Source: Chlamydiales bacterium
GTDB lineage: Bacteria > Chlamydiota > Chlamydiia > Chlamydiales > JAAKFR01
DNA length: 64,000 bases
Direction of reading: 5' to 3'
Assembly (NCBI GenBank): GCA_022601635.1
Contig: JAJACG010000004.1
Coordinates: 6,856-70,855 of the forward strand
A program made the position numbers and the translations under genes. Below the pieces are notes generated by a model. That model was not told the origin of the DNA and did no database searches. It saw only the letters and a program-made list of their open reading frames with translations. Shown here in pieces: positions 3,507 through 18,500 of this stretch (position 1 is the first letter of the stretch; each line of letters starts with the position of its first letter).

Positions 3507-4262
3507 ATGGTGAAATTAAGCTCAATATTGCAGCAGAGATTTAAGAAGAAAGAAAAGGCGAAGATGGCCTCATTGGCTGAAAAGAGTAGCTCAGGAGATT
3601 TAGCTGCTTTTTCTGGAGTCTTCCAAGTCAATGATATTTCAGCCAAAGAGCGTGCCGATTTGCGCGATCTTTTGGAGAAGTATGAGGATGCAACAAGTGA
3701 TACAGCTGAGGACCTGCAGCAGCTGAGTCAGATCACTTGTGAGGTCAAAGCAATTAACAATCAAGCGGCTATATTACATGGCGAGCGCATTAAAAGGGCG
3801 CAAACGCTTTTGAAGAAGTATAAAGAGGGTGCATTTACAGCTTGGCTATTGACTACATATGGCAATCGTCAAACGCCCTATAATTTTCTCCAATATTTTG
3901 AATTCCATTCCAAAATCCCCAAGGCTTTGCATGGCAAGATGGAAGAGATGCCAAGGCAGGCGGTCTATACGCTTGCGAGCCGAGAGGGAGAGATTGAGAA
4001 AAAGGAGGAGATGGTCCGCAACTACAGTGGACAGACGAAGCAGGAGATGATCTTGGAGATTCGCACTGCATTTCCTTTGGGTGAGAAGGATGGGAGACGT
4101 GAGAATATACCAGAGATGGGGATCAAAGCGCTAAAACGTGTTTTGTCTCAGCTGGAAAGACCTGATGTGCACTTTACTGAGGATCAGAAGGAGCGCCTCG
4201 CTGAACTATTGAATAAAATTGAGGAAAAATCATGCAAGCAACAGGAACAAAACCAATGTTAG
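3507..4262 (+). CDS. pGP6-D / CT583-like protein (possible ParB-like partner of the ParA)
   Basis: The central region AILHGERIKRAQTLL...FTAWLLTTYGNRQTPYNFLQYFEF...PRQAVYTLASREG resembles, from memory, the chlamydial plasmid protein pGP6-D family. It starts 3 nt after the parA stop. Confidence 0.55.
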   Translation: MVKLSSILQQRFKKKEKAKMASLAEKSSSGDLAAFSGVFQVNDISAKERADLRDLLEKYEDATSDTAEDLQQLSQITCEVKAINNQAAILHGERIKRAQTLLKKYKEGAFTAWLLTTYGNRQTPYNFLQYFEFHSKIPKALHGKMEEMPRQAVYTLASREGEIEKKEEMVRNYSGQTKQEMILEIRTAFPLGEKDGRRENIPEMGIKALKRVLSQLERPDVHFTEDQKERLAELLNKIEEKSCKQQEQNQC

Positions 4263-4780
4263 ATGATAAGACTGTGATGCTTTTCGAAGGGAATTTGAAG
4301 CGCATCTTTGCGATGAAGATCACTCGCTCTACTTTTCGTGAGCTACAAAATGTGATTCTTTCATGCGTTAATCAGAACCAAGAGATGGCAAACTTTCTCT
4401 TTGAAACATTGATGACAGGTCAGATAAAGCCAGGAACTGTCAATGAGAAGCATCAAGAGGTTTTGGAGCAGTGCATCACGCTATTCACCATTCCTGCCCG
4501 TTTGGCAAAAGAGGTGTTTGAGCGCGGTGAGTTCATCAATATCATCACAAGCGATATGGTGACACAAGGTGAGGAGTGCGCCTTTTTGAACCGTGTACGA
4601 CGCATTGATGGTGAGGAGTTCACCTTCCTTTCTGATCCGATGAATACATTGAATCTTCTGCAGCACTTTTCAGCGCGACTACCTGAGCTGATGAAAAATG
4701 CGAAGGGTAAAGAGGAGCTGGACAAGCACAAAAAAGAGCTTGCTTTGATCGGTGAGCGCATCAAGCAGATGGCGCTATGA
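4232..4780 (+). CDS. conserved chlamydial hypothetical protein, CT584-like (182 aa)
   Basis: Size and position (thrS-parA-pGP6D-like-X) match my recollection of C. trachomatis CT581-CT584. LFEGNLKRIF...FRELQNV N-terminus. An alternative start at 4256 would reduce the overlap with the upstream gene. Confidence 0.45.
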   Translation: MQATGTKPMLDDKTVMLFEGNLKRIFAMKITRSTFRELQNVILSCVNQNQEMANFLFETLMTGQIKPGTVNEKHQEVLEQCITLFTIPARLAKEVFERGEFINIITSDMVTQGEECAFLNRVRRIDGEEFTFLSDPMNTLNLLQHFSARLPELMKNAKGKEELDKHKKELALIGERIKQMAL

Positions 4781-4929
4781 TTGGATCTTGGGAGCTTATC
4801 GTCATCATGATCGTGGTGCTTGTGCTTTTTGGAGGCAAGAAGCTGCCTGAGTTTGCCAAGAATTTGGGCAAGGGCATGCGCGCATTTAAAAAGGCATCGC
4901 AGGGCATCGAGGAAGATGAAGAGAAGTGA
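4777..4929 (+). CDS. tatA: twin-arginine translocase subunit TatA/E (50 aa)
   Basis: Below the ORF-track size cut-off. My translation: MIGSWELIVIMIVVLVLFGGKKLPEFAKNLGKGMRAFKKASQGIEEDEEK. This is the canonical TatA pattern of a TM helix, FG hinge and amphipathic helix. ATGA overlap with the upstream stop. Confidence 0.8.
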   Translation: MIGSWELIVIMIVVLVLFGGKKLPEFAKNLGKGMRAFKKASQGIEEDEEK

Positions 4930-5626
4930 GTTCTGGGCTCATGTAGCAGAGCTAAGAACAACGCTCCTATCGCTGGTTTTTCTGGTGGTCACAACTTTTG
5001 TGGCCACCTTCTTTTTTCACCAAAACATTTTAGATCTACTTCTAGCTCCGTTAGATCATACAAGCTACATCCAACTCAGTCCTATCGAAGGCTTCTTGGT
5101 GGCACTAAAACTCTCACTTTGCACAGCACTTCTAATTTCAGCCCCCTTTGCTTTACTCATTCTTTGGAAGTTCATCTCACCAGCTCTTTACAGCCGTGAA
5201 AAAAGAGCCTTTTTCCTGCTCTTACCGCTGACAATTCTCTTTCTATCTATGGGTATTGGTTTTGCTTATAAATTTACTCTGCCAGTTGTGATGCGCTTTT
5301 TAAGCGGCTTTACAATTGGAGAACCACTTTGGGCGTTGGCTCCGACGATCAACTTTGTATTGTCGCTATTGTTGGCGCATGCGCTTTGTTTTGAGTTATT
5401 TGCTCTTCTCTTTGTTTTGGTGCATTTTGGTTTGGTTAGGGCTGAGCATTTGGCGAGTGGTCGGCGTTATGTTGTGGTGGGATTATTTATATTAGCGGCG
5501 ATATTTACCCCTCCGGATGTTATTTCCCAGCTTCTACTGGTTTGTCCGCTTTGGATTCTCTACGAGACGATCAACCTTTATGCGAAAATCAGAGTTTCTG
5601 CTAAGCTACATGAGCATGACGGGTAG
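4916..5626 (+). CDS. tatC: twin-arginine translocase subunit TatC
   Basis: Starts at the internal ATG (MKRSEFWAHVAELRTTLL...), 14 nt inside tatA. Six predicted TM segments with a TatC-like pattern (P.E.F....K.S......SAP......W.F..P.LY..E...). Confidence 0.85.
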   Translation: MKRSEFWAHVAELRTTLLSLVFLVVTTFVATFFFHQNILDLLLAPLDHTSYIQLSPIEGFLVALKLSLCTALLISAPFALLILWKFISPALYSREKRAFFLLLPLTILFLSMGIGFAYKFTLPVVMRFLSGFTIGEPLWALAPTINFVLSLLLAHALCFELFALLFVLVHFGLVRAEHLASGRRYVVVGLFILAAIFTPPDVISQLLLVCPLWILYETINLYAKIRVSAKLHEHDG

Positions 5627-6155
5627 AGTATTTTGGATTACAGCGCTTGCAGGAGGTGGAAAGACGACGCTTGCCAATGCGCTTGGAAAAAGGCTCAAAA
5701 CCCCTCTTCATCTTGATGGCGATGCTCTTCGCAAAGCATTGAATAACTACGACTATTCTCTTGAAGGACGAATGGCTTTAGCAATGAACTATGCTAGGCT
5801 GTGTCATCTCTTTTCTAAGCAAGGCTTTGATGTTATTTGCGCAACGATCTCAATGTTTGACGAGCCAAGAGCTTGGATGAGAAATAACATTCCAAACTAC
5901 TTTGAAATTTATCTCAAAGTAGAGGCGGATGAATTAAAGAGGCGCAATCAGAAGAGGTTGTATAGCGAAGGAAGCTCTGTGGCTGGGGTAGATATTCCGA
6001 TTGAGCTTCCCAAAAGCCCCGATCTTGTGATAGAAAATAATGGCACAAAACCAATTGAAACATTCGTTGAGGATATTTTGAAATGCAGCAAGGCGACTTC
6101 ACCACACTCGCAAAAGAGTATAAAAATAGAACAGGCTACTCCGATACAGTCTTAG
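5610..6155 (+). CDS. APS-kinase-fold P-loop kinase (CysC-like; candidate cytidine diphosphoramidate 3'-kinase, Cj1415-like)
   Basis: From the internal ATG: MSMTGRVFWITALAGGGKTTLANALGKRL...LDGDALRKALN...FDVICATISMF...YLKVEADELKRRNQKRLY. This is the APS kinase pattern (GxSGxGKST, LDGDxxR). Context is given in the findings. Confidence 0.75.
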   Translation: MSMTGRVFWITALAGGGKTTLANALGKRLKTPLHLDGDALRKALNNYDYSLEGRMALAMNYARLCHLFSKQGFDVICATISMFDEPRAWMRNNIPNYFEIYLKVEADELKRRNQKRLYSEGSSVAGVDIPIELPKSPDLVIENNGTKPIETFVEDILKCSKATSPHSQKSIKIEQATPIQS

Positions 6156-6826
6156 ACTATCTATGCAGCAAAATTCAACCCAACTCTGTTGCAGATGTCG
6201 GTGCTGGAACAGGCAAATTGACTGAGGGATTGATCCAACTAGGCCTTAAGGGATTTGCAGTTGAGCCTAATCAGGCGATGCGTGAAGAGGGAGCTGAAAT
6301 TGTTGGAAATGATCACTTTGTTTGGCAAGAGGGCTCAGGCGAAAAAACTGGTTTGTCAGATCAATCTGTGAATTGGGTATTGATGGCTTCGTCTTTTCAC
6401 TGGACAGATCAAGAAAAAGCCTTACAGGAGTTTGCGCGTATTTTGAGACCGGGTGGTTTTTTTACGGCGATATGGAACCCTCGCGATGTTGAAAAAAATG
6501 AACTTCATCAGACCATTGAGAGAAAAATTGAATCTCTGATCCCAGATCTAAAAAGGGTCTCATCTGGGGCAAAGGTAGGCAATATTGAAGATGTTTTAAC
6601 TCGTCAAAAACTCTTTGGCAATCTTATCTACATGGAAGGTATGCATGAAGTGCAGATGGATCAGGAGCGCTATTTGGGAGCTTGGCGCTCAGTCAATGAT
6701 ATTCAGGCGCAAGCGGGCCCAGATCGTTTTGCTGAAATTCTGGACTTTGTCAAAGAGATAACAGATTCTCTACCCTCTATTACCGTCCCCTATAAGACAC
6801 GAGCATGGACAGTACAAAAACTGTAA
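6083..6826 (+). CDS. class I SAM-dependent methyltransferase (Cj1419/Cj1420-like position)
   Basis: Motif I VADVGAGTGKLT, then post-I FAVEPNQAM, and LRPGGFF. Overlaps the kinase gene by 73 nt. Confidence 0.8.
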   Translation: MQQGDFTTLAKEYKNRTGYSDTVLDYLCSKIQPNSVADVGAGTGKLTEGLIQLGLKGFAVEPNQAMREEGAEIVGNDHFVWQEGSGEKTGLSDQSVNWVLMASSFHWTDQEKALQEFARILRPGGFFTAIWNPRDVEKNELHQTIERKIESLIPDLKRVSSGAKVGNIEDVLTRQKLFGNLIYMEGMHEVQMDQERYLGAWRSVNDIQAQAGPDRFAEILDFVKEITDSLPSITVPYKTRAWTVQKL

Positions 6827-9105
6827 AACCGATCTCTTTTGAAAGCAAAGCAAAGACGCTTGCAACTGTGGCATCGCGCATTCAAACAGCTCGCGTGCTG
6901 CCGCAGCTGCGCTTTTCACTTAAAGAGCTCGAAAAAGTCCAACCAATCGAGTTGATTGAGAAAAAGGGCTGGTTAGACCAGCCGCTGGTGATCCGCAGCA
7001 GTGCTGTTATTGAGGATTCTGAAAGTGAATCTATGGCAGGTCACTTTGTCTCCGTTCTAAACGTTGTTGGCTTTAATGCTGTCAAAAGCGGCCTCAAGCA
7101 AGTAGCCAACTCTCTTGCTGATCCTACAGATGAAATTTTTGTGCAACCAATGCTCACAAATGTCAAAATCTGCGGTGTTGCCTTTTCTAGAACGCCTAAT
7201 ACTGGCGCTCCATATATCCAAATTAACTATGATGACTCCGGCAGTACTACCTCTGTCACTGATGGATCTACCAATCAACTGCTCTCTTATCTCTACTATA
7301 GAAAAGCTCAAGCAGCTCCTCCAGATCCGTTGGACCGAGTTGTAAAGCTGCTTTTCGAACTTGAGGAACTCTTTTCAAATGACTCTATCGATATTGAGTT
7401 TGCGATTAATGATGAGGATCAGCTCTATCTCTTTCAGGTAAGACCTCTTTTGGTCAAGTCCAAGCCTATGGAGCAGCTCCCTCTGGACTCTATCTCAAAG
7501 CGGATAGAGAAGTTATCAATGCCGCACCCCAATCTTCATGGCTCTCGCTCCTTTTTTGGGATAATGCCTGATTGGAATCCTGCGGAGATTATTGGGCTTC
7601 GTCCCAATACCCTTTCACTATCTCTCTATAAAGAGTTGATCACCGATCAGATATGGGCCTATCAGCGTAACAACTACGGCTATTTGAATCTGCGAAGTTT
7701 TCCTCTATTAATTGACTTGTGTGGTCTCCCCTACATTGATGTACGTGTCAGCTTTAACTCTTTTATTCCACAATCTTTGTGTCCAAAAATGGCAAAGAAG
7801 CTGGTCGAGCACTATCTAGATCGATTGGAGAAAAACCCTCATCTGCATGACAAGATTGAGTTTGAGGTTGTTTTTTCCTGCTATACGGTAGATCTACCTC
7901 AGAGGGTAGCTGAACGCGGTTTCTCTAAGGATGAGGTGGAGCAGATCACGCAAAGCTTGCGGGAGCTGACCAATGGTATCATCGATGGGGAGACGGGCCT
8001 TTGGCGCCAAGATATTGAGAAGATCGAGAAGCTTGAAGAGCAGTACCAGGCGATTGTAGATAGCCCTTTGGATCGCTTGTCGAAGATCTACTGGTTGATG
8101 GAAAACTGCAAAAGATATGGCACTCTTCCCTTTGCAGGTTTAGCCAGAGCTGGCTTCATTGCAGTGGAACTTTTGAAGTCGTTGGTGCGTGAAGGGGTGC
8201 TATCGGAAGATGACTATCAGAATTTTCTAGCCTCTTTGGACACTGTAAGTGGTCAGATGGTCAACGATCTTGCTACAACAGATCGTGCCTCATTTTTAGA
8301 TCGATATGGACATCTTAGGCCGGGAACCTATGATATCTTATCACCGACCTATGCAGAAACGCCTGATCTATACTTTGACTGGAAGCATAAGCATCCTCCG
8401 AGAGAGCATCAGGAGTTTCATCTCTCTCTTAGGCAGTTGGAGGAGATTGAATCTTTACTTAAAAGCCATGGAATCACACACAATGTATTGACCTTCTTCT
8501 CTTTTTTAAAAACAGCAATTGAGGGTCGAGAGCACTCCAAATTTGTCTTTACTAAGACATTAAGCAAGACATTGAGCTATATAGAAGAACTTGGTGAGGA
8601 GCATGGCTTTGCAAAAGAGCAGCTGCAGCATATGGATGTGGGTGTAATCAAGCAGCTTTACTCTAGCTCAACTGATATCGCAGAGACAATGGGCGCCTCG
8701 ATTGATGAAGGCTGTAAGAAAGCGCATCTAATGAAGTTAATTCAGCTTCCCCCACTGATTACGAAAACAAAGCAGCTCTATGGCTTCTTCTTACCAACAG
8801 ATGAGCCCAACTTTATTACTTTAAAGAGAGGTCGTGGTGTTGTAAAAGGCGCAGAGTCTAAAGAGATTGAGGGAGCAGTAGTCTGTATTCCGAGTGCTGA
8901 TCCCGGCTATGACTGGATTTTTTCTCATAAAATAGCAGCCTTAATTACTATGTACGGGGGGATGAATTCGCATATGGCGATTCGTGCAGCCGAGCTTTCA
9001 ATTCCAGCTGTGATCGGGGCTGGTGAGACACTTTATGAGCGCTGGTCTTCAGCTAAGGAGCTTGAGGTAGATTGTCTCAATAGACGTGTGGTAAAGTTGT
9101 GTTGA
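6805..9105 (+). CDS. PEP-synthase-like ATP-grasp plus phosphohistidine swivel-domain kinase (candidate L-glutamine kinase, Cj1418-like), 766 aa
   Basis: N-terminal PPDK_N-type motif LVIRSSAVIEDSESESMAGHFVSVLNV. C-terminal PEP-utilizer mobile domain GGMNSHMAIRAAELSIPAVIGAG. Confidence 0.7.
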   Translation: MDSTKTVKPISFESKAKTLATVASRIQTARVLPQLRFSLKELEKVQPIELIEKKGWLDQPLVIRSSAVIEDSESESMAGHFVSVLNVVGFNAVKSGLKQVANSLADPTDEIFVQPMLTNVKICGVAFSRTPNTGAPYIQINYDDSGSTTSVTDGSTNQLLSYLYYRKAQAAPPDPLDRVVKLLFELEELFSNDSIDIEFAINDEDQLYLFQVRPLLVKSKPMEQLPLDSISKRIEKLSMPHPNLHGSRSFFGIMPDWNPAEIIGLRPNTLSLSLYKELITDQIWAYQRNNYGYLNLRSFPLLIDLCGLPYIDVRVSFNSFIPQSLCPKMAKKLVEHYLDRLEKNPHLHDKIEFEVVFSCYTVDLPQRVAERGFSKDEVEQITQSLRELTNGIIDGETGLWRQDIEKIEKLEEQYQAIVDSPLDRLSKIYWLMENCKRYGTLPFAGLARAGFIAVELLKSLVREGVLSEDDYQNFLASLDTVSGQMVNDLATTDRASFLDRYGHLRPGTYDILSPTYAETPDLYFDWKHKHPPREHQEFHLSLRQLEEIESLLKSHGITHNVLTFFSFLKTAIEGREHSKFVFTKTLSKTLSYIEELGEEHGFAKEQLQHMDVGVIKQLYSSSTDIAETMGASIDEGCKKAHLMKLIQLPPLITKTKQLYGFFLPTDEPNFITLKRGRGVVKGAESKEIEGAVVCIPSADPGYDWIFSHKIAALITMYGGMNSHMAIRAAELSIPAVIGAGETLYERWSSAKELEVDCLNRRVVKLC

Positions 9106-9710
9106 TTGGTGTGACGCAGCGAGTCGAATTTCATCCCCAAAGTGAGGAAATACGAGATGCTTTGGATCAAAGGTGGGCGCAGTTTTTATTTGCATGCGAC
9201 CTACCATTTGTGCTGCTTCCTAATCATAAATCAGGATTCGCACTTGCCAAAAGGTGTAGCGGCTTTTTGCTAACGGGTGGTAATTCGATTGGTGAGGCGC
9301 TTATGCGCGATCAATTTGAGATCAAGATCTTAGAATACGCTCTTGAGAGGGCATTGCCACTGCTTGGAGTTTGTCGCGGTATGCAGCTGATTCAGCACTT
9401 TTTTGGTGTACCCTTACAGAAAATTGAGGGGCATGTAAGGAGTAGGCACTTGAATGAGCGTAATAGTTTTCATGATTTTGGGAGTTATGAGACAGTTGAG
9501 CCGTTAGAGATTTTGGAGCGTGCAGAAGATGGTATTGTGGAAGCAATCTGGCACACTAAAAAGCCTCTTATTGGTATGATGTGGCACCCAGAAAGGGAGG
9601 AATCTTTTGATGATCGAGACAGACAGCTATTCAAAGGCTATTATTCTAGCGGCGGGTCGCGGATCGAGGATGGGCTCTTTGACAGAAGATCGGCCCAAGT
9701 GTTTGGTTGA
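9099..9710 (+). CDS. class I glutamine amidotransferase / peptidase C26-like hydrolase (candidate gamma-glutamyl-CDP-amidate hydrolase, Cj1417-like)
   Basis: GTG start overlapping the upstream stop. Nucleophile-elbow LGVCRGMQLI and C-terminal MMWHPE (His-Glu of the triad). Confidence 0.75.
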   Translation: MLIGVTQRVEFHPQSEEIRDALDQRWAQFLFACDLPFVLLPNHKSGFALAKRCSGFLLTGGNSIGEALMRDQFEIKILEYALERALPLLGVCRGMQLIQHFFGVPLQKIEGHVRSRHLNERNSFHDFGSYETVEPLEILERAEDGIVEAIWHTKKPLIGMMWHPEREESFDDRDRQLFKGYYSSGGSRIEDGLFDRRSAQVFG

Positions 9711-10350
9711 GCTTCGTCAAAAGACGCTTCTTCAATGGCAGACAGAGGCGCTTAAAGAGGCTGGAATCTCAGATATTTATATCGTTTGTGGCTATAAAAA
9801 AGAGTGTTTTCCTCAAGAGGGCTACCGCTTTTTTGAGAATCCCAATTGGGAGACGACTCAGATGGTTCAATCGCTAATGGAGGCGGATGAGCTACTGAGA
9901 AAAGAGCCTGTTATCGTTTCTTATTCTGATATTGTCTACCACAGTGATATTGTTTCGAAGTTAATGCAATCTTCGGCAGATATTGCGATTTCCTATGATA
10001 GCTGTTGGCAGGAGCTATGGAAAAGACGTTTTTCTGACCCCCTATCAGATGCAGAAACTTTCAAACAGAGTGATGGTTTACTAAGAGAGATTGGCGCAGA
10101 GCCAAAGAGTGTGAGCGAGGTTGAGGGGCAATATATGGGGCTGTTGAAGATCACTCCTTCAGGTTGGTCGAGGCTTAAAGAGATGGATGGAGTGCGCGAC
10201 CTTTCTGTGACTGAAATTTTGCAGAAATTGATTGATCATCAAGAGGAGATAGCAGCAGTTGAGGTTGCGGGTCGTTGGTGTGAGGTTGATTCTGCTGCTG
10301 ATTTAGAGCTCTATGAACAGGGTCCAAATGAACAACATGAGTGGGTATAG
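9607..10350 (+). CDS. NTP-transferase-fold nucleotidyltransferase (candidate CTP:phosphoglutamine cytidylyltransferase, Cj1416-like)
   Basis: KAIILAAGRGSRMGSLTEDRPKCLVEL signature of sugar/phospho-ligand nucleotidyltransferases. 247 aa. 104-nt overlap with the upstream ORF. Confidence 0.8.
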   Translation: MMIETDSYSKAIILAAGRGSRMGSLTEDRPKCLVELRQKTLLQWQTEALKEAGISDIYIVCGYKKECFPQEGYRFFENPNWETTQMVQSLMEADELLRKEPVIVSYSDIVYHSDIVSKLMQSSADIAISYDSCWQELWKRRFSDPLSDAETFKQSDGLLREIGAEPKSVSEVEGQYMGLLKITPSGWSRLKEMDGVRDLSVTEILQKLIDHQEEIAAVEVAGRWCEVDSAADLELYEQGPNEQHEWV

Positions 10351-11589
10351 ATGTTTAGAAAATTGAAACAAGCGCGACGAGAAAAGAGAAAAAACAAGCT
10401 CTATATTGCCAATCCAACTCTTCAGTCAGAGGGAAGCTGTCGATTCATTCCCAATCTTTTTTCTCCAAGAGAAATAAATCGATTGGTTGCTGACCACAAG
10501 CGTATCCTTATTTATGGTCAAAAGGAATTTACAGAAAAAGCGGCGAAGTGGGCACAAGTAGAGGGAAAAGAGATCACTGTTTTCAATGAGCCGACTCAAC
10601 TTTACTACCGCACTGTTCAATGGCCCTTTGATCTGGTGATTTTGCTAACTACAAAGGAGCATTTTTTTGTCTTCTTACGATCGGTGATTCATGGCAGAAA
10701 CTATCGGGGAGAATTAGCAATCCCCGCAACCCAAGAAGGTAGCTGTTCCTTGGAAAGGATCGAATCAAAAATGCCAATCTACCTTTTATGCTTTGCTTGC
10801 TGCGGCGCCAATCGCCTTATGTTTGGCTTCAGACATTTAATGCGTACAATTGATTGGGAGCAGAAACCACACTTAACGACAAGTCATAATGTAAAGCTGA
10901 CAGACAACTTTAAGAATTGGAATGAGTTTGCGGAGGCCCAGAGGTGGTATAATTATCACCTGGACTACTGTCAATGGACTTCCACAAATGATTGGATTCA
11001 TCCTAAACATGTTGAAATTGAGGGATGTCGCAGTGTAGTTTTATGTCGTGATCCTCGCGATGTGGTCAACTCATTTTTCTGGCATACCTGGGCTGACTAT
11101 GGCTATGATCCCAACCATCTACTCAATATTATCAGAGGCCTTTTCCACTCTACGCGCATTGATTTTACCAATCAGTGGCCTTCTGCAAAAGAGAAGTGTG
11201 AGATGATGCTCTATGCTCAAGAATCGCTTAACTGTACAGTGATCCGCTTTGAGGATATGCATAAGAGTGATGAAGGAGCGTTAAAAAAGTTGATGACGGA
11301 GTTGGGGCTCTATCCTCATCCTTTTGGAATGCAAGAGCAAGATTTTGTTCACGCTGCTCTTTTGGGCAGCTTTGACCATCAGATTGGAGATCGTCGTAAA
11401 AGAGGAGAGGGCACTTCTAGCAAAGAGCTCAGATTTATTTCTGCATGTCGCAAGGGAGTCGTGGGTGATTGGCGCTCGAGTTTTACAAAAGAGGCATGTG
11501 ATCTTTTCAAGGAGCAAACAGGTGATGCGCTCATAAAACTTGGCTATGAAACTTCGATGGATTGGGAGGCCAATGCTAAAGTTCATTGA
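10351..11589 (+). CDS. sulfotransferase-fold protein, paralog 1 (412 aa)
   Basis: 3'-phosphate-binding-type motif VVLCRDPRDVVNSFFWH and the eukaryote-type SULT C-terminal motif CRKGVVGDWRSSFT (compare RKGxxGDWKxxFT). Has an extra ~130-aa N-terminal domain. Confidence 0.7.
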   Translation: MFRKLKQARREKRKNKLYIANPTLQSEGSCRFIPNLFSPREINRLVADHKRILIYGQKEFTEKAAKWAQVEGKEITVFNEPTQLYYRTVQWPFDLVILLTTKEHFFVFLRSVIHGRNYRGELAIPATQEGSCSLERIESKMPIYLLCFACCGANRLMFGFRHLMRTIDWEQKPHLTTSHNVKLTDNFKNWNEFAEAQRWYNYHLDYCQWTSTNDWIHPKHVEIEGCRSVVLCRDPRDVVNSFFWHTWADYGYDPNHLLNIIRGLFHSTRIDFTNQWPSAKEKCEMMLYAQESLNCTVIRFEDMHKSDEGALKKLMTELGLYPHPFGMQEQDFVHAALLGSFDHQIGDRRKRGEGTSSKELRFISACRKGVVGDWRSSFTKEACDLFKEQTGDALIKLGYETSMDWEANAKVH

Positions 11590-12766
11590 AAAAAAGAAAA
11601 AAAAGAAGCAACAAGAGGCTCTTTTTGTTGCTTCAAAACCGACACACTCCTTTGATCCTGGTAGCTGCCTCTTCATCCCAAATCTCTTTTGCAAAGAGAG
11701 ATTGGTTCGCCTCGCAAAAAGCCACGCAAACGTACTACTTTTTGGAGAGCCTCAATTTACAACTCCAGCGCAAAATTGGCTCCCAACAGCGAAGGCTATT
11801 ACTTCTATTGAAGATCTCTATGATCGTGAGCTCGACTTTAACTTCGATTTGATCGTTGTCCTAACGCGAACGAAGAATTACCTGCCCTTCTTACGCGCTT
11901 TGATTCATGTACGCGAATACAGAAAATGCATTGCCACTCCAGGAAAAGTTGAGTGGTCGATGAAAATTGAAGATATCGAACCCAAAGAGCCTATTTTCCT
12001 CTGTGCATATCCCTGTGCAGGAACTAACCGTCTTATGTTTGGTTTCCGCCATCTTATGAATTCTATCCAGTGGGAACAAAAACCACATATCGAGCTCTCT
12101 CATAATGCTCGATTGATAAAAAATCGTTTTTCATGGAGCGAATCTGATGAGGTTCAACGCTGGCATCTATACTCGCTAGACTACTGCCAATGGTTGATTT
12201 CCCATCTGTGGTTTGATCTAGAGAAACTGCAGAGCTCAGATAGTAAAATTGTCATATTGATGCGCGATCCACGCGATATCTTAAACTCTCTTTTTTGGCG
12301 TTCTGATAATTGTGATATTTTGGAATTCATCAATGGTCATGATATATCTACTCATATCAACTATACAGCAAAGCTTCCATCAGCAAAAGAGATCTGTAAC
12401 ACCTATCTTCGGGCTCTGGAAATGAAAAACAGTGTCATCATTCGCTTCGAAGACATGCATAACTGCGATCTAGAAGCTCTTAAAGGTTTAATGTCTGATC
12501 TTAAGCTCTTCCCTCATCCCTTTGGCATGAGTGAAGAGGGTTTTGTTAAGGCAGCTTTTTTGGGCAGCTTCCAATATCAAAATGGTGGGAAAAGAAGCCA
12601 CGACTCTACAAAAATACGAGGCCAAATGAATGTCTCCTGTCGCAAAGGTAGCGTTGGTGATTGGCGTTCAAGTTTCACAAAAGAGGCATGCGATCTTTTC
12701 AAAGAGCAAACAGGAGATGCTCTGATTCAGCTTGGATATGAAACATCTATGGATTGGTCGTCTTAG
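11573..12766 (+). CDS. sulfotransferase-fold protein, paralog 2
   Basis: Collinear with paralog 1 (ILMRDPRDILNSLFW, CRKGSVGDWRSSFT). The start is chosen at ATG 11573 (MLKFIEKKKKKKQQEALF), which aligns with the paralog 1 N-terminus. The track start is 11540. Confidence 0.7.
   Translation: MLKFIEKKKKKKQQEALFVASKPTHSFDPGSCLFIPNLFCKERLVRLAKSHANVLLFGEPQFTTPAQNWLPTAKAITSIEDLYDRELDFNFDLIVVLTRTKNYLPFLRALIHVREYRKCIATPGKVEWSMKIEDIEPKEPIFLCAYPCAGTNRLMFGFRHLMNSIQWEQKPHIELSHNARLIKNRFSWSESDEVQRWHLYSLDYCQWLISHLWFDLEKLQSSDSKIVILMRDPRDILNSLFWRSDNCDILEFINGHDISTHINYTAKLPSAKEICNTYLRALEMKNSVIIRFEDMHNCDLEALKGLMSDLKLFPHPFGMSEEGFVKAAFLGSFQYQNGGKRSHDSTKIRGQMNVSCRKGSVGDWRSSFTKEACDLFKEQTGDALIQLGYETSMDWSS
11589..11604 (+). 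repeat. A7-G-A8 homopolymeric tract at the paralog 1 stop / paralog 2 codons 6-11
   Basis: Read directly: tgAAAAAAAGAAAAAAAAGaag. It encodes the KKKKKK run of paralog 2. Confidence 0.9.
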
Positions 12767-12932: not shown

Positions 12933-13062
12933 CCTCAAACAGTTGGTACTTCGCCTCCTCATCTATCCCCAATCTCCCCTTCAAACTCAAGAAGATAAAG
13001 ACTATCAAGGCACTCCCAAATAGAGCAAAAAGCAGCGAGTAGTGCAAAATAAAACCGGTCAT
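12919..13062 (-). CDS. CcoS/FixS-like micro-protein (47 aa)
   Basis: Not in the track (<60 aa). My translation: MTGFILHYSLLFALFGSALIVFIFLSLKGRLGIDEEAKYQLFEDDDE. It has one TM helix plus an acidic tail, like CcoS (…GQFDDLE…ILxDDD). ATGA overlap with the ccoO-like stop. Confidence 0.5.
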   Translation of the reverse strand: MTGFILHYSLLFALFGSALIVFIFLSLKGRLGIDEEAKYQLFEDDDE

Positions 13063-14180
13063 TTCTCATCCAAGATTTTGATCGTTTGAACCGGATCCTT
13101 CCCAAGCCACCAAGCTTGTGTTGGAGGCGTAATCCTTGTGCCCTTCGTCATCAAGTATTGAAAGATGGCCTCAAACTTATAGTTGGGAACACCAAAGGGA
13201 TTTTCAGCAGAGCCGCGCGGATCATTGTCAAAGAAGTGACCATAGGAGGGCATAATACTACCCCGGCTCTCCGATTTAGGAGACCAGAAATGCGACATAT
13301 GCCAATCTCGATGCGGCCGCTTAATCCCCACACGCGAAAGATCAGGTCCAATACGCCTTGTCCCAGGAAACGTCACCTCTTGGTAGACATATTCATTTGC
13401 GGAGGAGGGCGGCGCTGGGTAGTCTGCAGAACCGTTGAGCACCACATCCTGCACAAGAGTGCGCGTCTGATCTGTATGGCAGTACCAACATCCCTCAGCA
13501 CGAAAGATGTTTTCTCCCATCGTAATCAAACTCTTTCGCGACAAAAAACGCTGTTTGCCCTTTTTCAGCTCCTTCAGATTCTTGATCGGCTCCCCCATCT
13601 CATCATAGAGCCAGTAGTGATCCCCTCGCACAAAACGCTTTGAAACACGGTACTCCTTTGGATTATTTACGTAGAGCACGCCCTCAGAAGTGTCATAGGG
13701 TACCGTTCCATTGATCTGAAAGTTTTCAGAAGCCCAGGGCTCCACAACACCATCGCTCTGCACAATGGCAAACGCCTCAGTACTCTTCGGATCAAAGAGC
13801 TCTAGAACCTCACTGCCTTCCTTTTTTTTCAAAAGAAGCACTCGCGAAGTCAGCTTCAACTCCTTGTCCTCTTTGCGCGTCACAAAGGATTCCAGCTCGG
13901 GCGTTGTCTCAATCGTCACCGCTTCACTCTCTTGGTAAGCCTGCAATGTTTTGCCCTCTTGCAAATGGTAGACATATTGCAAGCCTACACCGCCAGGATT
14001 GGAGGTACTCACATAAACATTGGGGTCTGAAACTTCATACATCTGTACTTGATAGCTACTCGATGGCTGCGTCCAGCTAGGATCCACATAGTGCGGCGTA
14101 ATCAAAGTAACAGCAATTGCCGTCGAAAAAAGCAGTAAGATCGCTACAGCGGTCCAAATTGCTGACTTCTCAAGATTCAA
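13059..14180 (-). CDS. ccoO: cbb3-type cytochrome c oxidase monohaem subunit CcoO/FixO with a large N-terminal insertion
   Basis: TM anchor, then GENIFRAEGCWYCHTDQTR...FPGTRRIGPDLSRVGIKRPHRDWHMSHFWSPKSESRGSIMPSY (CcoO signature CxxCH...GPDL.RVG...WH..H...P). About 170 extra residues lie between the anchor and the haem domain. Confidence 0.8.
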   Translation of the reverse strand: MNLEKSAIWTAVAILLLFSTAIAVTLITPHYVDPSWTQPSSSYQVQMYEVSDPNVYVSTSNPGGVGLQYVYHLQEGKTLQAYQESEAVTIETTPELESFVTRKEDKELKLTSRVLLLKKKEGSEVLELFDPKSTEAFAIVQSDGVVEPWASENFQINGTVPYDTSEGVLYVNNPKEYRVSKRFVRGDHYWLYDEMGEPIKNLKELKKGKQRFLSRKSLITMGENIFRAEGCWYCHTDQTRTLVQDVVLNGSADYPAPPSSANEYVYQEVTFPGTRRIGPDLSRVGIKRPHRDWHMSHFWSPKSESRGSIMPSYGHFFDNDPRGSAENPFGVPNYKFEAIFQYLMTKGTRITPPTQAWWLGKDPVQTIKILDEK

Positions 14181-15573
14181 TTGTATGCCTCCTCAAAATC
14201 AGCGTATTACAGATATTATAGACAAACAACGCGCAGCCTATAAAGATCAAAACACCGCTCATCATTCGCCAAAACCACCACCACCACATTCGCTGTACCG
14301 TCTCCAAAAAGGGAAAAGAACTCAGATTCTCATGGTAGTGCGCATAGCTGCTGCCACTGCCCCAGCTCGCCCACTCAAGCCCCTGCTTAAAGCCGCCAAT
14401 CCACAAGACAACAAACATCAAAACAGAGCCTGTAAATGCCAAAACAAAGTGCCATTCAGCCAGCTTGTCTGACCAAAGTGGCCGCTTTGCAATTTTGGGA
14501 ATCACAAAGTAAGTGCCGCCAATAGCAAAAAAAGTAAAGGTTCCAAGTAGCGCCATATGCGCATGGCCAATGATCCAATCAGTTTTCGAAATCACCTCAT
14601 TCACATTGCGCAATGACTGCAGAGATCCCTGCAGACAGACGATCAGGTAGAAGGCAACGCCCACTGTCAAAAAGCGAAGCGCCACACTCTCACTATAGGC
14701 AGACCAATTCTGCTTCAACGTGCCAAAGAAGTTCACAATCACCGTCCAGACTGGAATGATCAACCACATCGAAAAGATGATACTAGTTGTCTGTAACCAT
14801 TGAGACTCTGGTCCATGCAGCATGTGATGCGCACCGATCCACGCATAGACAAAAGCAATCGACCAAAATCCGACCATCGAAAGTGTGTGGCTGTAAAGCG
14901 GACGGTTCACCAATTTGGGGATGAAGTAGTAAGCAGTAGCAAGACCAAGAGGTGTGAAAATCAAACCTACAAGATTATGGACAAAGAAGAAACTGGTGTT
15001 GACGCGTGAGATACCCATCGGCATCCAGACAATGAGGAAATTGCCGACAAAGTAGACAATTGTGGTCCACAGAAGCGTTGCCATCACATACCAGAGCGAA
15101 ACATACATCTTCTTATGCTTACGTCTAAAAATGGTCATGAAGAGATTGACCGAGAAGAGTGCCCAAGCAACAAAGACCAGAGCTTTGATAGGAATGAAGC
15201 GCAACAGCATCATCGGCAGCTCTGCATATTCCCAACCAAAGTTTGTGCCAAAGGGAAAGGAGAAGACACCCAAAATAAGAGAGGGCCACCAAATCCAACT
15301 TGTCAAAGTGGCTAACTTATAGCTCCAAAGAGGAACACCGCAAAGCCTTGGAACGAAGTAATAGACAAGCGCCATGTCCGCAGATAAGAGCCACAAGAGG
15401 GTAACAGTTCCGACATGAACAGGACGAATGCGCCCAAAGGTAACATATTCACCAGAAAAGTAGTCGGGAATTAAGAAGCCGTTGATCGAAATGAAGATAG
15501 CAACCAAGAGTCCCATGAGCAGAAAGCCAAGCGCAGGGTAGAGCATCTGTTTTACAGGGCGGTCATCGTACAT
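14170..15573 (-). CDS. ccoN: cbb3-type cytochrome c oxidase subunit I CcoN
   Basis: 467 aa, 12+ TM helices, haem/Cu His ligand contexts (WIGAHHMLHG, IIGHAHMALLG, HVGTVTLLW). Confidence 0.85.
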   Translation of the reverse strand: MYDDRPVKQMLYPALGFLLMGLLVAIFISINGFLIPDYFSGEYVTFGRIRPVHVGTVTLLWLLSADMALVYYFVPRLCGVPLWSYKLATLTSWIWWPSLILGVFSFPFGTNFGWEYAELPMMLLRFIPIKALVFVAWALFSVNLFMTIFRRKHKKMYVSLWYVMATLLWTTIVYFVGNFLIVWMPMGISRVNTSFFFVHNLVGLIFTPLGLATAYYFIPKLVNRPLYSHTLSMVGFWSIAFVYAWIGAHHMLHGPESQWLQTTSIIFSMWLIIPVWTVIVNFFGTLKQNWSAYSESVALRFLTVGVAFYLIVCLQGSLQSLRNVNEVISKTDWIIGHAHMALLGTFTFFAIGGTYFVIPKIAKRPLWSDKLAEWHFVLAFTGSVLMFVVLWIGGFKQGLEWASWGSGSSYAHYHENLSSFPFLETVQRMWWWWFWRMMSGVLIFIGCALFVYNICNTLILRRHTIES

Positions 15574-18500
15574 GGCTATTCATCTTCCTTATGCGAGCTG
15601 TTTCTGTTTGTAGCCGCGTCTTCAAGTTGATGTAACCCGCCTGCTCAGCCAATATCTCTTGCTTCTTCTTGTCCGCTAACGGATTTTTCGGATCCACTTG
15701 TACATCATACTCTGCTATTTTTGCATCCAAATAGCGGTAAACAAGCTCCAAATCACGCTGATCCCTAACCTCCATATAGGTGTAAAAATGCTCCATCGGT
15801 ACACGCTTACTAATCAGTAGTTCACCCAAATTATAGAAAATCGCCCTCTCTTCTCTCACCCATGCAATCTGTTTCACCAATTTCTCATCTTTGCCCTTCA
15901 AGGGAATCCTCGCCTCCTCAAGCTCAATCTGCTTGCGATCAAAGACCTTATAGAGCACCTCCTGCAATCTCTCCCTCTCTAGTGCTGATCTAGAAAAATT
16001 GCGCACATACATCGTCAGCTGCATCCTCTGCTTCGAACTCGTCTGATCACCCCAAGGCGTCATCGCCGTCCCAGCAATACCATATTTGATCGAACGAAGA
16101 AGTCGCATATCATCGCGCGACTGGATCCATGGCAGGTTAGTAAACATCCGCGGTTTCGCCTCCTGCATCGATGTCGCCCGCTCACCAGCTCCCGTCCCCT
16201 CCTTTCCATGGCAAACAGCGCAATTGATAATATAAAAAGGCTCAATCTCTTTCAGATTACCCTCTGTATAATACTTCTCGCGGATATACCCTCCATCAAA
16301 GTAAGCAGCAACCGACACATCGTCAGGAACAGGTGATAGCAGCCCTCCCTCATCTCTCATCTCCTGCACAACATCATTGGCTGAATAGCGCCACTTCACA
16401 TCATCCATCACTGGATCTCGATGCGACGGCGGTAAGCCGCGGTAGAGCCAGTCCACAAGCTGCGTAATCTGTCCATCACTCAACACACCCTCACCCCAAG
16501 GTGGCATCGGCGTACCCACAACCCCCATTGTGATAGAATCAATCGCCTCTTTCTTCGTCAAATTACGCAAAAAGACGGGGTTACGTAAATTCTTCGGCAC
16601 AGGATAGATCCACTGGGCAACCGGGCCATTGCCCTGACGCTGATCACCATGACAACTCGCACAGAGCGTTTGATATGCAACAGAGGGACTAAAACCCTCC
16701 TTCTCCCACCGCTTTTGCAACTTATCGCGATTTCTCTTGCCCATCTCCTTGAGCATGTAGTTGAGTGCAAAAAATTTGGTGTCGTCAAATGGCATTGAGG
16801 GCATCAGCGAACGCGCCGTATAAGCAGCTGGATTGCGAAAGTGACCCAGCAGCCACGCATCCGAGCGCATCACACCCGACCAGTTCAGCGGCGGCGCAAT
16901 CTCACGACCCAGCCCATACTCACCGATCATAGCTTGCAAAACTGTGTTCAGTCTTCTTTGATACTTCTCAGATTCATCAACACGAGAGGCAAACTTGAAG
17001 TTGGGATAAAACCCTATCAAAAGACCCGGAAAGCGCTGCTCAAGCTGCATCAACAAGGTATATTGCTTTGTCGCCAAGAACTTGTGATCTATCTCCTCTC
17101 CCTTCTCCTGAATCCGCTCAGCTAAAGTCGATCCCAAAATGTTTTCCGGGAACGTACGCTCAAACCAAGCTCTGTCTGTCGGCTTGACATGACTATCAAA
17201 TCCTTCCAATCTGTGACAGGAGGCGCAACCTTGAGTCGCAAAAACTGTTTGGCCAAAGTGCAAGTTGCGTAGCTCAGTTGGGGCAATCGGTTCTTCCCAT
17301 GGAAGCTTTGCTCCCGCTTCCCATTGAGCAATAGAGACTTTTTGATCCACTTCAGAGTGTGTTTTGCGCATTCCTGTCTGCGCCATCAAGAAGGCCATGA
17401 GATCCTCCACCTCTTGATGATCGAGGTGGAAGTTGGGCATTGTCGAAGAGGGCAAATCTGCTTGAGGCCAGACAATCGACTCTTTGACATACCAGGGGTA
17501 GGAGAGTCCAATCTGTGTCAGCTCAGGTCCAATAGATGCGCGTGAAAGACCCGCAATACGGTGGCAGGCGTAGCAGCTTTGTGAGATATAGAGCTCGCGT
17601 CCCCGCTCATAGTGAGCAAAGAGTGGGCCGCGCTTCAAGGTAGCAATCAGCTGCTTGTCTTGGACAGCGCTCAAATAGCCCTCTTTTGCCTCTTCATACT
17701 CTTGCAACTTTTTGCTCTGCTCTTCAATCACCTTTGCCTTGGTAAAAGATTGCTGATTAACAAGAAGCTGCAATTGATTCACATCCTCAGCAGCAGAAGC
17801 AACTTTGAGCAGCTCTTCTGCCCTCTCTTCAGAGCCCACAATTTGCTCTACAGAGCTGGCGATATTACCACCCTCTTTCAAAAAGGCGATCTGTCCCTCT
17901 AAGGCATCAATCTGAGTGGGCGTCAGCAAAAAGTTTTGTCGCTCAATTTCCAAATAGCGAATTGTCTTCTCAACATCTCGCTTAGCAATCAGCCGCTGCA
18001 GATTGAGTAGAGCGAGAAGAGCCTCTTTTTCATCTTCTACAGCCTCTCTTAGATCCGCAAGCTGCTGCTCCTTAGCAGCAGTCAATTGATTGATCTGCAT
18101 CACAGTGGAGCTAACATCATCTTGCGCTGTTTGGTGGCATTGCATGCATTTCGCTTCAATCAACGGCCCCACCAGCAGTGGCTTAGTTTGAAAAGTTAGA
18201 TCATGGCCCGGCTTGCCATTATACCGTTTTGAAAAGGGGGGGTCAAAGCGCTCATCAAGCTCCAAAAATTGCGGAGTGAGTCCAGCGTGCGCCTCTTCAT
18301 AATCTGAGACCGGCCCATGCGCTCTTTTGGCCACAAGTGAGCGGCCATTTCCGCTGTGACATGAAGTGCATCCATACTCTTCAACGGGATGAAACTCAAA
18401 AGGCTTTGTCTCAGCACCAATCAATGGATGCGCATTCAGAGCCCCTCGATATTTTTGCAGCTTTTGTGGCGCATTCAAAAAGACGTAGTCAGGGTTAGGC

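Follow-up and report, generated by a model that had tools for sequence, protein, structure and literature searches.

Which enzyme attaches a phosphoramidate group to its acceptor once the activated donor has been made? The O-methyl phosphoramidate (MeOPN) of Campylobacter capsules affects serum resistance and serves as a phage receptor, and its donor pathway has already been worked out; to our knowledge, the transfer step of this decoration was never reconstituted. The C. jejuni enzymes Cj1415-Cj1418 make cytidine diphosphate (CDP)-phosphoramidate 3'-phosphate, which in papers from 2025-2026 is still the 'likely donor' of the phosphoramidate (PMC11800397), and the enzymology of the decoration is still called 'unclear' (PMC13276843). 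The same question is raised by the stretch of DNA analyzed in this study (64,000 nucleotides (nt) of contig JAJACG010000004.1 from a Chlamydiales bacterium, referred to as the window), in which homologues of the donor pathway are followed by two tandem open reading frames, ORF-A and ORF-B, for proteins with a sulfotransferase (SULT) fold. A preliminary description of the window had proposed that this fold is re-used for phosphoramidate transfer. We consider it probable that ORF-A and ORF-B catalyze a phosphoramidyl transfer from 3'-phospho-CDP-amidate to an acceptor that resembles the use of 3'-phosphoadenosine-5'-phosphosulfate (PAPS) by sulfotransferases. The fold, the motifs, the homology of the pathway and the conserved linkage are direct observations, from which we infer donor, chemistry and acceptor. 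The features of the two genes are as follows (aa, amino acids; PSB, 5'-phosphosulfate-binding; pLDDT, predicted local distance difference test score).

10351-11589, plus strand: ORF-A, candidate phosphoramidate transferase of the SULT fold (412 aa; PF00685, 41.1 bits)
10402-10773, plus strand: Rossmann-like alpha/beta N-terminal domain of ORF-A (residues ~18-140; AlphaFold2 pLDDT 85; five beta-alpha units)
10798-10818, plus strand: modified PSB loop CCGANRL of ORF-A (canonical PKSGTTW) with the invariant Arg155, located by profile-to-PDB alignment
11044-11073, plus strand: 3'-phosphate-binding motif CRDPRDVVNS of ORF-A, aligning to 'RNPKDxxVS' of SULTs (R233, D234, R236 and D237 invariant, S241 nearly so)
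11446-11487, plus strand: motif CRKGVVGDWRSSFT of ORF-A
11446-11565, plus strand: conserved C-terminal block of ORF-A (CRKGVVGDWRSSFT ... LGYETSMDW; 40 codons)
11573-12766, plus strand: ORF-B, candidate phosphoramidate transferase of the SULT fold (397 aa; PF00685, 39.7 bits)
12011-12034, plus strand: modified PSB loop PCAGTNRL of ORF-B
12194-12211, plus strand: LISHLW of ORF-B, with the retained His
12260-12289, plus strand: motif MRDPRDILNS of ORF-B
12638-12679, plus strand: motif CRKGSVGDWRSSFT of ORF-B
12638-12757, plus strand: conserved C-terminal block of ORF-B (CRKGSVGDWRSSFT ... LGYETSMDW; 40 codons)

ORF-A and ORF-B are intact, co-directional tandem paralogs that share 47% identity over their full length. 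The start of ORF-B is the ATG at 11573 and not the listed TTG at 11540, because a GGAGG lies 4 nt upstream of this ATG and P0002, its copy in the database, has the matching length of 397 aa. The two sulfotransferase motifs named in the preliminary description (types xRDPRDxxxS and CRKGxVGDWRSSFT) are present in both proteins at the places where it had put them. Both proteins exceed the cut-off of 22 bits of the Pfam model PF00685 (Sulfotransfer_1), which was their only Pfam match; no NCBIfam model matched, and no transmembrane segments were found in either protein. A search of the family profile against the PDB matched 40 sulfotransferases. The AlphaFold2 model, which covers ORF-A and was built from an 11-sequence alignment, reached a pLDDT of 83.5 and a predicted template modeling (TM) score of 0.82, and its comparison with the PDB by Foldseek gave 40 matches at E ≤ 1e-3, all of them sulfotransferases or retinol dehydratase. 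The top matches were cytosolic SULTs, with E-values down to 7e-8, a probability of 1.0 and target-normalized TM scores of 0.45-0.59. Pfam, the profile-to-PDB search and Foldseek on the ORF-A model thus concur on the SULT fold that had been suspected, and both proteins belong to the Sulfotransfer_1 fold. The additional claim that such motifs are unusual in bacteria was overstated: an exhaustive profile search returned 5306 Sulfotransfer_1-like representatives, and 80 metagenomic contigs with short sulfotransferases were found as well.

The genes upstream of ORF-A encode homologues of the enzymes that make 3'-phospho-CDP-amidate, as had been predicted, and all five could be compared directly with their C. 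jejuni counterparts (APS, adenosine 5'-phosphosulfate; SAM, S-adenosylmethionine; PEP, phosphoenolpyruvate; CTP, cytidine triphosphate).

5517-6155, plus strand: Cj1415-like kinase, CDP-amidate 3'-kinase homologue with an APS-kinase fold (APS_kinase, E 1e-20; NF004041)
6083-6826, plus strand: class I SAM methyltransferase, Cj1420-like, candidate phosphoramidate O-methylase (Pfam Methyltransf_11/25)
6805-9105, plus strand: L-glutamine kinase homologue, Cj1418-like, with PPDK_N and PEP-utilizers domains (NF004508)
9099-9710, plus strand: gamma-glutamyl-CDP-amidate hydrolase homologue, Cj1417-like, Peptidase_C26/GATase (Pfam Peptidase_C26)
9607-10350, plus strand: CTP:phosphoglutamine cytidylyltransferase homologue, Cj1416-like, MobA-like (Pfam NTP_transf_3)

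All ORFs between 5517 and 12766 overlap or abut, with ORF-A and ORF-B at the end of the series, and form one operon; the TAG stop of the cytidylyltransferase gene, whose true start possibly lies 3' of 9607, abuts the ATG of ORF-A. Identities of the four pathway proteins to those of C. jejuni ranged from 32 to 44%. The kinase shared 41% identity with its C. jejuni counterpart and scored 161 bits on NF004041 (cut-off 127; 291 bits for the C. jejuni Cj1415-like protein), and it remained below the cut-off of the apsK/CysC model TIGR00455. The glutamine kinase reached 933 bits on NF004508 (cut-off 501; 1173 bits for the C. jejuni Cj1418-like protein) and 44% identity over 776 aa. For the hydrolase (32% identity, E 2e-26), the best NCBIfam model was NF045546 at 115 bits, under its cut-off of 250, with 331 bits for the Cj1417-like protein of C. 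jejuni. The cytidylyltransferase was 38% identical to the Cj1416-like protein (E 1e-60), and neither of these two proteins matched a dedicated NCBIfam model. Of the C. jejuni proteins (locus L008), the Cj1420-like one shares 46% identity with the methyltransferase and the Cj1419-like one 33%. The methyltransferase carries 'ASSFHWT', exactly the peptide coded by a published cj1420 PCR primer (PMC4965091); the degenerate pattern of this primer was also used to retrieve 18 Campylobacter and Helicobacter loci. Pfam and NCBIfam revealed no other transferase candidate in the operon, and a homologue of Cj1421/Cj1422 was absent from it as well. The G+C content at 4000-12000 is 0.43-0.45, versus 0.47-0.50 in the flanks, which is compatible with horizontal acquisition.

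The association of ORF-A/ORF-B-like genes with phosphoramidate genes was found to be conserved across genomes. The subfamily is rare: a word-seeded search of 5.8 billion proteins yielded ~10 close relatives, and an exhaustive search with the family hidden Markov model (HMM) returned 89 representatives at E ≤ 1e-30 with the common loop 'AG[TS]xR'. Every subfamily locus with readable context lies inside a Cj1415-1418 cassette (8/8, the window included; the seven others, with 30-39% identity, are P0003, P0004, P0005, P0006, P0007, P0008 from Azospirillum isscasi, and P0009), and the cassettes contain one to three copies of the family genes. As a control, metagenomes were scanned with the family alignment, which provided 80 loci with generic ~270-aa SULTs scoring 40-90 bits on the family HMM. 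No glutamine kinase was found near any of them, including the 23 on contigs of at least ~10 kb (8/8 versus 0/23; Fisher's exact test, p = 1.3e-7). The more remote SULT relatives P0011 and P0013 are located in ordinary polysaccharide loci, and the only names given to proteins of the extended family are 'Sulfotransferase domain-containing protein' (Candidatus Blackallbacteria) and hypothetical protein. We read ORF-A and ORF-B as the probable attaching enzymes because members of their subfamily are always linked to the phosphoramidate-making genes.

Sampling in the reverse direction extended this pattern. Glutamine-kinase loci were picked arbitrarily from Clostridium homopropionicum, a Nitrospina metagenome-assembled genome and a JGI contig, and all three adjoin a different sulfotransferase-fold gene, whose product lies above the Pfam cut-off of Sulfotransfer_3 and is unrelated to the ORF-A/ORF-B subfamily by HMM. 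Two more sulfotransferase-fold genes occur in a plasmid cluster of Azospirillum lipoferum. We lean slightly toward the view that recruitment of the SULT fold occurred repeatedly, across several subfamilies and many bacterial phyla, and gave a general phosphoramidyl transferase for which 3'-phospho-CDP-amidate takes the place of PAPS as a look-alike.

The nucleotide pocket was assessed in a 50-sequence alignment of the family that reaches down to 19% identity. Invariant in this alignment are P142, G152, R155, R233, D234, R236, D237, E301, R367, G369, G372 and Y399 (ORF-A numbering), and nearly invariant are the His column 213, S241, K368, D373, W374, F341 and Q344. The residues that hold the 3'-phosphate are retained, with R233, R367 and G369 belonging to the first set and S241 and K368 to the second. 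The PSB loop, which comprises residues 146-158 of ORF-A, was modified: profile-to-PDB alignments pair the family loop 'PcaGtnRf' with 'YPKSGTHW/YPKAGTTW' of SULTs, and the loop Lys of PAPS enzymes is missing from ORF-A and ORF-B. Across the family the loop reads PCAGTxR by consensus and contains Lys in few members, whereas the control SULTs retain a Lys loop (PKSGT or HHKCGT). In SULT1 structures, a Trp (Trp53) that follows the PSB loop stacks on the adenine of PAPS; at the corresponding position, as read from the alignment, the family has the invariant R155. According to these alignments, the 3'-phosphate site appears to be kept, the phosphosulfate-loop Lys lost and the adenine-stacking Trp replaced by Arg, which is where the pocket had been predicted to depart from that of PAPS enzymes.

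These results bear on the main rival explanation, according to which ORF-A and ORF-B are ordinary PAPS-dependent sulfotransferases that sulfate the same or an unrelated molecule, with the APS-kinase-like gene supplying the PAPS. Both proteins pass the Sulfotransfer_1 model and have enzymes that bind PAPS or 3'-phosphoadenosine-5'-phosphate (PAP) as closest structures, their 3'-phosphate motifs are intact, the operon does contain an APS-kinase-fold gene, and canonical Lys-loop SULTs are encoded in some cassette loci (L001 3775-4584, L005 4932-5717). Nevertheless, we regard this explanation as unlikely, because the kinase falls into the Cj1415 subfamily and under the CysC cut-off, no ATP sulfurylase is encoded in the operon or elsewhere in the window, the PSB loop has lost its Lys and the stacking Trp has given way to an invariant Arg, and the linkage to glutamine kinase in 8/8 loci would be left unexplained.

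A second deviation concerns ORF-A alone. At position 213, ORF-A has Asn (AAT, 10987-10989), one nucleotide away from CAT, in place of the His that 90% or more of the 50 family members have; this His is retained in ORF-B and in P0001, the closest relative of ORF-A, and P0007 has Leu. The His column would correspond to the catalytic His of SULT1C2, an approximate assignment since the HMM alignment is offset by two residues. Because of Asn213 at a nearly invariant His, ORF-A may be inactive or atypical, with its putative catalytic His exchanged for Asn.

The C-termini of the two proteins provide a further clue to their relationship. The preliminary description had counted 20 nucleotide differences and 3 amino-acid changes over the last 40 codons; its finding of few amino-acid changes among many nucleotide differences stood, and the corrected figures are 19 nucleotide differences, of which 16 affect third codon positions, and two changes (V/S and K/Q). 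For this block, the Nei-Gojobori method (NG86) gave a nonsynonymous divergence (dN) of 0.032 and a synonymous divergence (dS) of 1.53 between ORF-A and ORF-B (dN/dS ~0.02), compared with a dN of 0.56 and a saturated dS in the remainder of the gene. Across the family, no other part is conserved as strongly as this block, in which 27-31 of 40 residues are shared even with members that are ~30% identical overall. The low dN, the high dS and the family-wide conservation confirm that the C-terminal block is under strong purifying selection, as had been claimed. Recent gene conversion of the C-termini was rejected on the same grounds, and the excess of identical codons at shared residues was not significant (20/35 in the block versus 60/141 elsewhere; p = 0.13). 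The C-terminal block of ORF-A is closer to that of ORF-B (38/40 identical) than to that of its closer relative P0001 (31/40), whereas the relationship is reversed in the rest of the protein (104/216 and 138/209, respectively), and for this reason the data hint at an ancient partial conversion or at a shared constraint on both C-termini, for example an interface that they have in common. The ribosome-binding site of ORF-B, GGAGG, is located within the codons of the conserved 'MDWEA' of ORF-A (window 11565-11604). The 5' end of ORF-B contains runs of A7 and A8 (11589-11604) that code for KKKKKK and could be prone to slippage; no G or C runs of six or more were found in 10351-12766.

Taken together, the Asn in ORF-A and the conserved C-termini could also be explained if ORF-B were the sole transferase and ORF-A a dead paralog that serves as a partner, scaffold or acceptor-binding subunit, with the C-terminal blocks forming a dimer interface. 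Cytosolic SULTs offer an analogy in that they dimerize through a C-terminal KTVE motif. This explanation is favored by the exchange of a His that is kept in most members and in P0001, by the opposite affinities of the C-terminal block and the remaining protein, and by the nucleotide-binding motifs of ORF-A, which are all intact. We consider it quite unlikely, given that apart from this position ORF-A shows good conservation and purifying selection, that the His was assigned from an approximate alignment, and that P0007, the closest family member at its locus, also lacks the His.

The N-terminal extension noted in the preliminary description is real, as the PSB loop starts only at residue 146 and residues ~18-140 of ORF-A were modeled as a separate alpha/beta domain. 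This N-terminal domain (~140 aa) is conserved across the family and is possibly involved in acceptor or partner binding. Foldseek found no PDB match to it at E < 1e-3; the best match (E 0.03) was to a generic Rossmann fold. A PglD_N-like nucleotide-sugar domain was considered and found to be unsupported, with only generic Rossmann matches at E ≥ 0.03. The domain is also relevant to a third explanation, in which the SULT-fold proteins hydrolyze or recycle 3'-phospho-CDP-amidate or cytidine 3',5'-bisphosphate (pCp), or perform a PAP-scaffolded chemistry other than transfer, and the transferase is encoded elsewhere. Retinol dehydratase (1fmj, 1x8k) does rank among the top structural matches, genes of an acceptor pathway are not adjacent, and other types of cluster are served by TagF-like or CDP-alcohol transferases. 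We nevertheless deem this explanation very unlikely: a duplicated gene with a divergent middle region and an N-terminal domain is in keeping with a diversification of acceptors, E301 (invariant), the family His and the P-loop are all compatible with a transfer site, and one to three copies per cassette resemble the arrangement of Cj1421/Cj1422.

Following the preferred reading, in which both proteins are phosphoramidyl transferases, glutamine, ATP and CTP would be converted to 3'-phospho-cytidine-5'-diphosphoramidate (3'-phospho-CDP-amidate) by the homologues of Cj1418, Cj1416, Cj1417 and Cj1415, in steps known from C. jejuni biochemistry, and ORF-A and ORF-B would handle this product as sulfotransferases handle PAPS. 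The 3'-phosphate would be held by R233/S241 and R367-K368-G369, and the diphosphate would rest on the remodeled P-loop (G152-x-x-R155). An acceptor hydroxyl, presumably activated by the family His (present in ORF-B; Asn in ORF-A), would then attack the terminal phosphorus and release 3'-phospho-cytidine monophosphate (3'-phospho-CMP), just as PAP is released in sulfation. The Cj1420-like methyltransferase would O-methylate the phosphoramidate before or after the transfer. By analogy with Cj1421/Cj1422, the two paralogs might serve two acceptor sites, or else ORF-A might be a non-catalytic partner of ORF-B; the acceptor could be a surface glycan, lipooligosaccharide or another molecule. The re-use of a sulfotransferase fold for phosphoramidate transfer, as originally proposed, is supported by fold, pathway, linkage and pocket, and with activity and donor deduced from these we judge it likely to be correct.

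Several points speak against this reading and have to be set beside its support. The pocket contacts were assigned by alignment rather than from coordinates or a docked ligand, the retained 3'-phosphate motifs would fit PAPS just as well, and on sequence alone a PAPS-making role would be possible for the Cj1415-like kinase with its APS-kinase fold. At least one of the paralogs may be inactive or use other chemistry. Acceptor-pathway genes such as glycosyltransferases were not found adjacent to the operon in the window, and the literature searched contains no biochemical evidence for such a transfer. The same literature does not link sulfotransferases to glutamine kinase or cytidine diphosphoramidate, and an earlier remark on the PAPS analogy is still possible. 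A strict rule that the kinase is always accompanied by a SULT was rejected, since the kinase-bearing cluster of the Smac51 plasmid has no recognizable SULT and contains only unassignable 413-aa proteins. The linkage is likewise not universal in that TagF-like or CDP-alcohol transferases take the place of a SULT in some of the glutamine-kinase clusters.

These latter clusters suggest a second route of transfer, with unphosphorylated CDP-amidate as the donor, because plasmid-borne clusters without the 3'-kinase carry TagF-like (Vibrio alfacsensis) or CDP-alcohol phosphatidyltransferase genes (Agrobacterium vitis) and not SULT-fold genes. At L110 (12966-14048), L113 (13344-14006) and L112 (6984-8216), a TagF-like (Glyphos_transf) or CDP-alcohol phosphatidyltransferase gene replaces the SULT-fold gene. 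Other cassettes contain additional genes. An Inositol_P gene (CysQ-like bisphosphate nucleotidase family) is located directly 3' of the cytidylyltransferase gene at L005 (12072-12836), and by analogy its product could clear the by-product 3'-phospho-CMP as CysQ clears PAP. Extra short sulfotransferase-fold genes adjoin the cassette at L001 (3775-4584), L005 (4932-5717) and L003 (6382-7314); their products carry a hydrophobic, signal-like segment at the N-terminus and a Lys loop of the canonical type (LPKSGS, IPKTGT), and neither PAPS nor the cytidine donor is expected outside the cytoplasm. An 846-aa protein annotated as adenylyl-sulfate kinase is encoded on plasmid AZO_p6 of Azospirillum lipoferum 4B (L109, 5665-8205). 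Its Cj1415-like kinase domain (residues 658-801) is fused to a 650-aa N-terminal region in which Sulfotransfer_2-like motifs were recognized by eye ('LPRAAGDS', 'FVRNPFDWYISSYY'); Pfam gave no match in this region, and any fusion of kinase and sulfotransferase is putative.

The source of the window looks like a Chlamydia-like obligate intracellular bacterium, because the regions 3507-4780 and 45541-47091 encode a UPF0137 (pGP6-D-like) protein, a CT_584-like protein and a TLC ATP/ADP translocase. On the minus strand, at 13059-20167, a respiratory cluster convergent with the operon encodes FixO-like and COX1 oxidase subunits, a 1091-aa multihaem cytochrome c and cytochrome b. Phosphoramidate decoration appears to extend to Chlamydia-like intracellular bacteria, for which no such modification is described in the literature searched, and the more than 7400 glutamine-kinase clusters found indicate that phosphoramidate decoration of glycans is far wider than Campylobacter. 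If our reading is correct, an obligate intracellular Chlamydia-like bacterium makes a phosphoramidate modification, and a soluble enzyme of ~400 aa would perform the missing last step of methyl-phosphoramidate decoration. It would also be the first sulfotransferase-fold enzyme known for phosphorus-group transfer, as we know of no other that transfers a phosphorus group. The donor pathway is the known part of this system; new would be a transferase with another fold, one that is informative about the mechanism, and its occurrence in a host lineage where it was not expected. A small soluble SULT-fold family, whose catalytic scaffold is well understood and which is tied to the cassette across diverse bacteria, makes the PAPS analogy, and the switch from adenine and sulfate to cytosine and phosphoramidate, testable.

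The comparison with Cj1421/Cj1422 that had been suggested in the preliminary description revealed no detectable homology. These Campylobacter MeOPN transferases have ~600 aa, belong to the NF058596 (CJJ1420_fam)/DUF2972 family (PMC5808241), and are presumed to share the donor (PMC3907429, PMC11800397). Cj1421-like genes at L016 (62-1879; 605 aa) and L018 (5201-7045) were recognized as positive controls (NF058596 at 699 bits; DUF2972 matched), whereas ORF-A and ORF-B matched neither model. The family HMM gave no match at E ≤ 10 among the ORFs of the 18 Campylobacter and Helicobacter loci, hhalign of the ORF-A/ORF-B family with the Cj1421-like set returned probabilities of 0.9-1.6%, and a scan of genome contigs with the cj1421-22 primer found nothing. 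HMM, hhalign, Pfam and NCBIfam therefore gave no sign of a relationship to Cj1421/Cj1422, and ORF-A and ORF-B are placed outside this family for lack of detectable homology. The Cj1421-like set was also negative in hhalign comparisons with three other cassette-linked SULTs and had no PDB relative by sequence. In the Cj1421-like alignment, 'GxSGH' and 'VRDPIxRLK' are invariant and lie ~70 residues apart, an arrangement that is reminiscent of a P-loop plus a 3'-phosphate motif and constitutes a putative echo at the level of motifs only; the segment of Cj1421/Cj1422 that published work interprets as a transmembrane helix may instead form the strand-helix of the P-loop. ORF-A and ORF-B would be non-orthologous, or extremely remote, replacements of Cj1421/Cj1422 that do the same job. 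They share with them the site beside cj1415-cj1420 homologues and the occurrence as tandem or multiple paralogs, and differ in their length of ~400 aa and in the absence of a poly-G/C tract, whereas Cj1421/Cj1422 have poly-G phase-variation tracts.

Compared with cytosolic SULTs (SULT7A1, 5x2b; SULT1C2, 3bfx; SULT2B1b, 1q22; plant SOT16/18; LGS1, 22ga), ORF-A and ORF-B share the fold, the motifs RxPxDxxxS and RKGxxGDW(K/R)xxFT and the position of the P-loop, and most family members also seem to have the His with which the central strand ends. Unlike these enzymes, they add the Rossmann-like N-terminal domain, have Cys or another residue in place of the PSB Lys and an invariant Arg in place of the adenine-stacking Trp, do not conserve the second catalytic Lys (KTH), and belong to a family linked to CDP-amidate genes and not to sulfate-activation genes. 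With NodH, Stf0 and the Sulfotransfer_3 enzymes they have in common the P-loop sulfotransferase fold, and the likeness may extend to glycan substrates and a place in polysaccharide loci. These enzymes are set apart, by description only, as PAPS-dependent enzymes with Arg or Lys in the PSB loop and a tie to CysDN/CysC, and Sulfotransfer_3-type partners are carried by other phosphoramidate cassettes.

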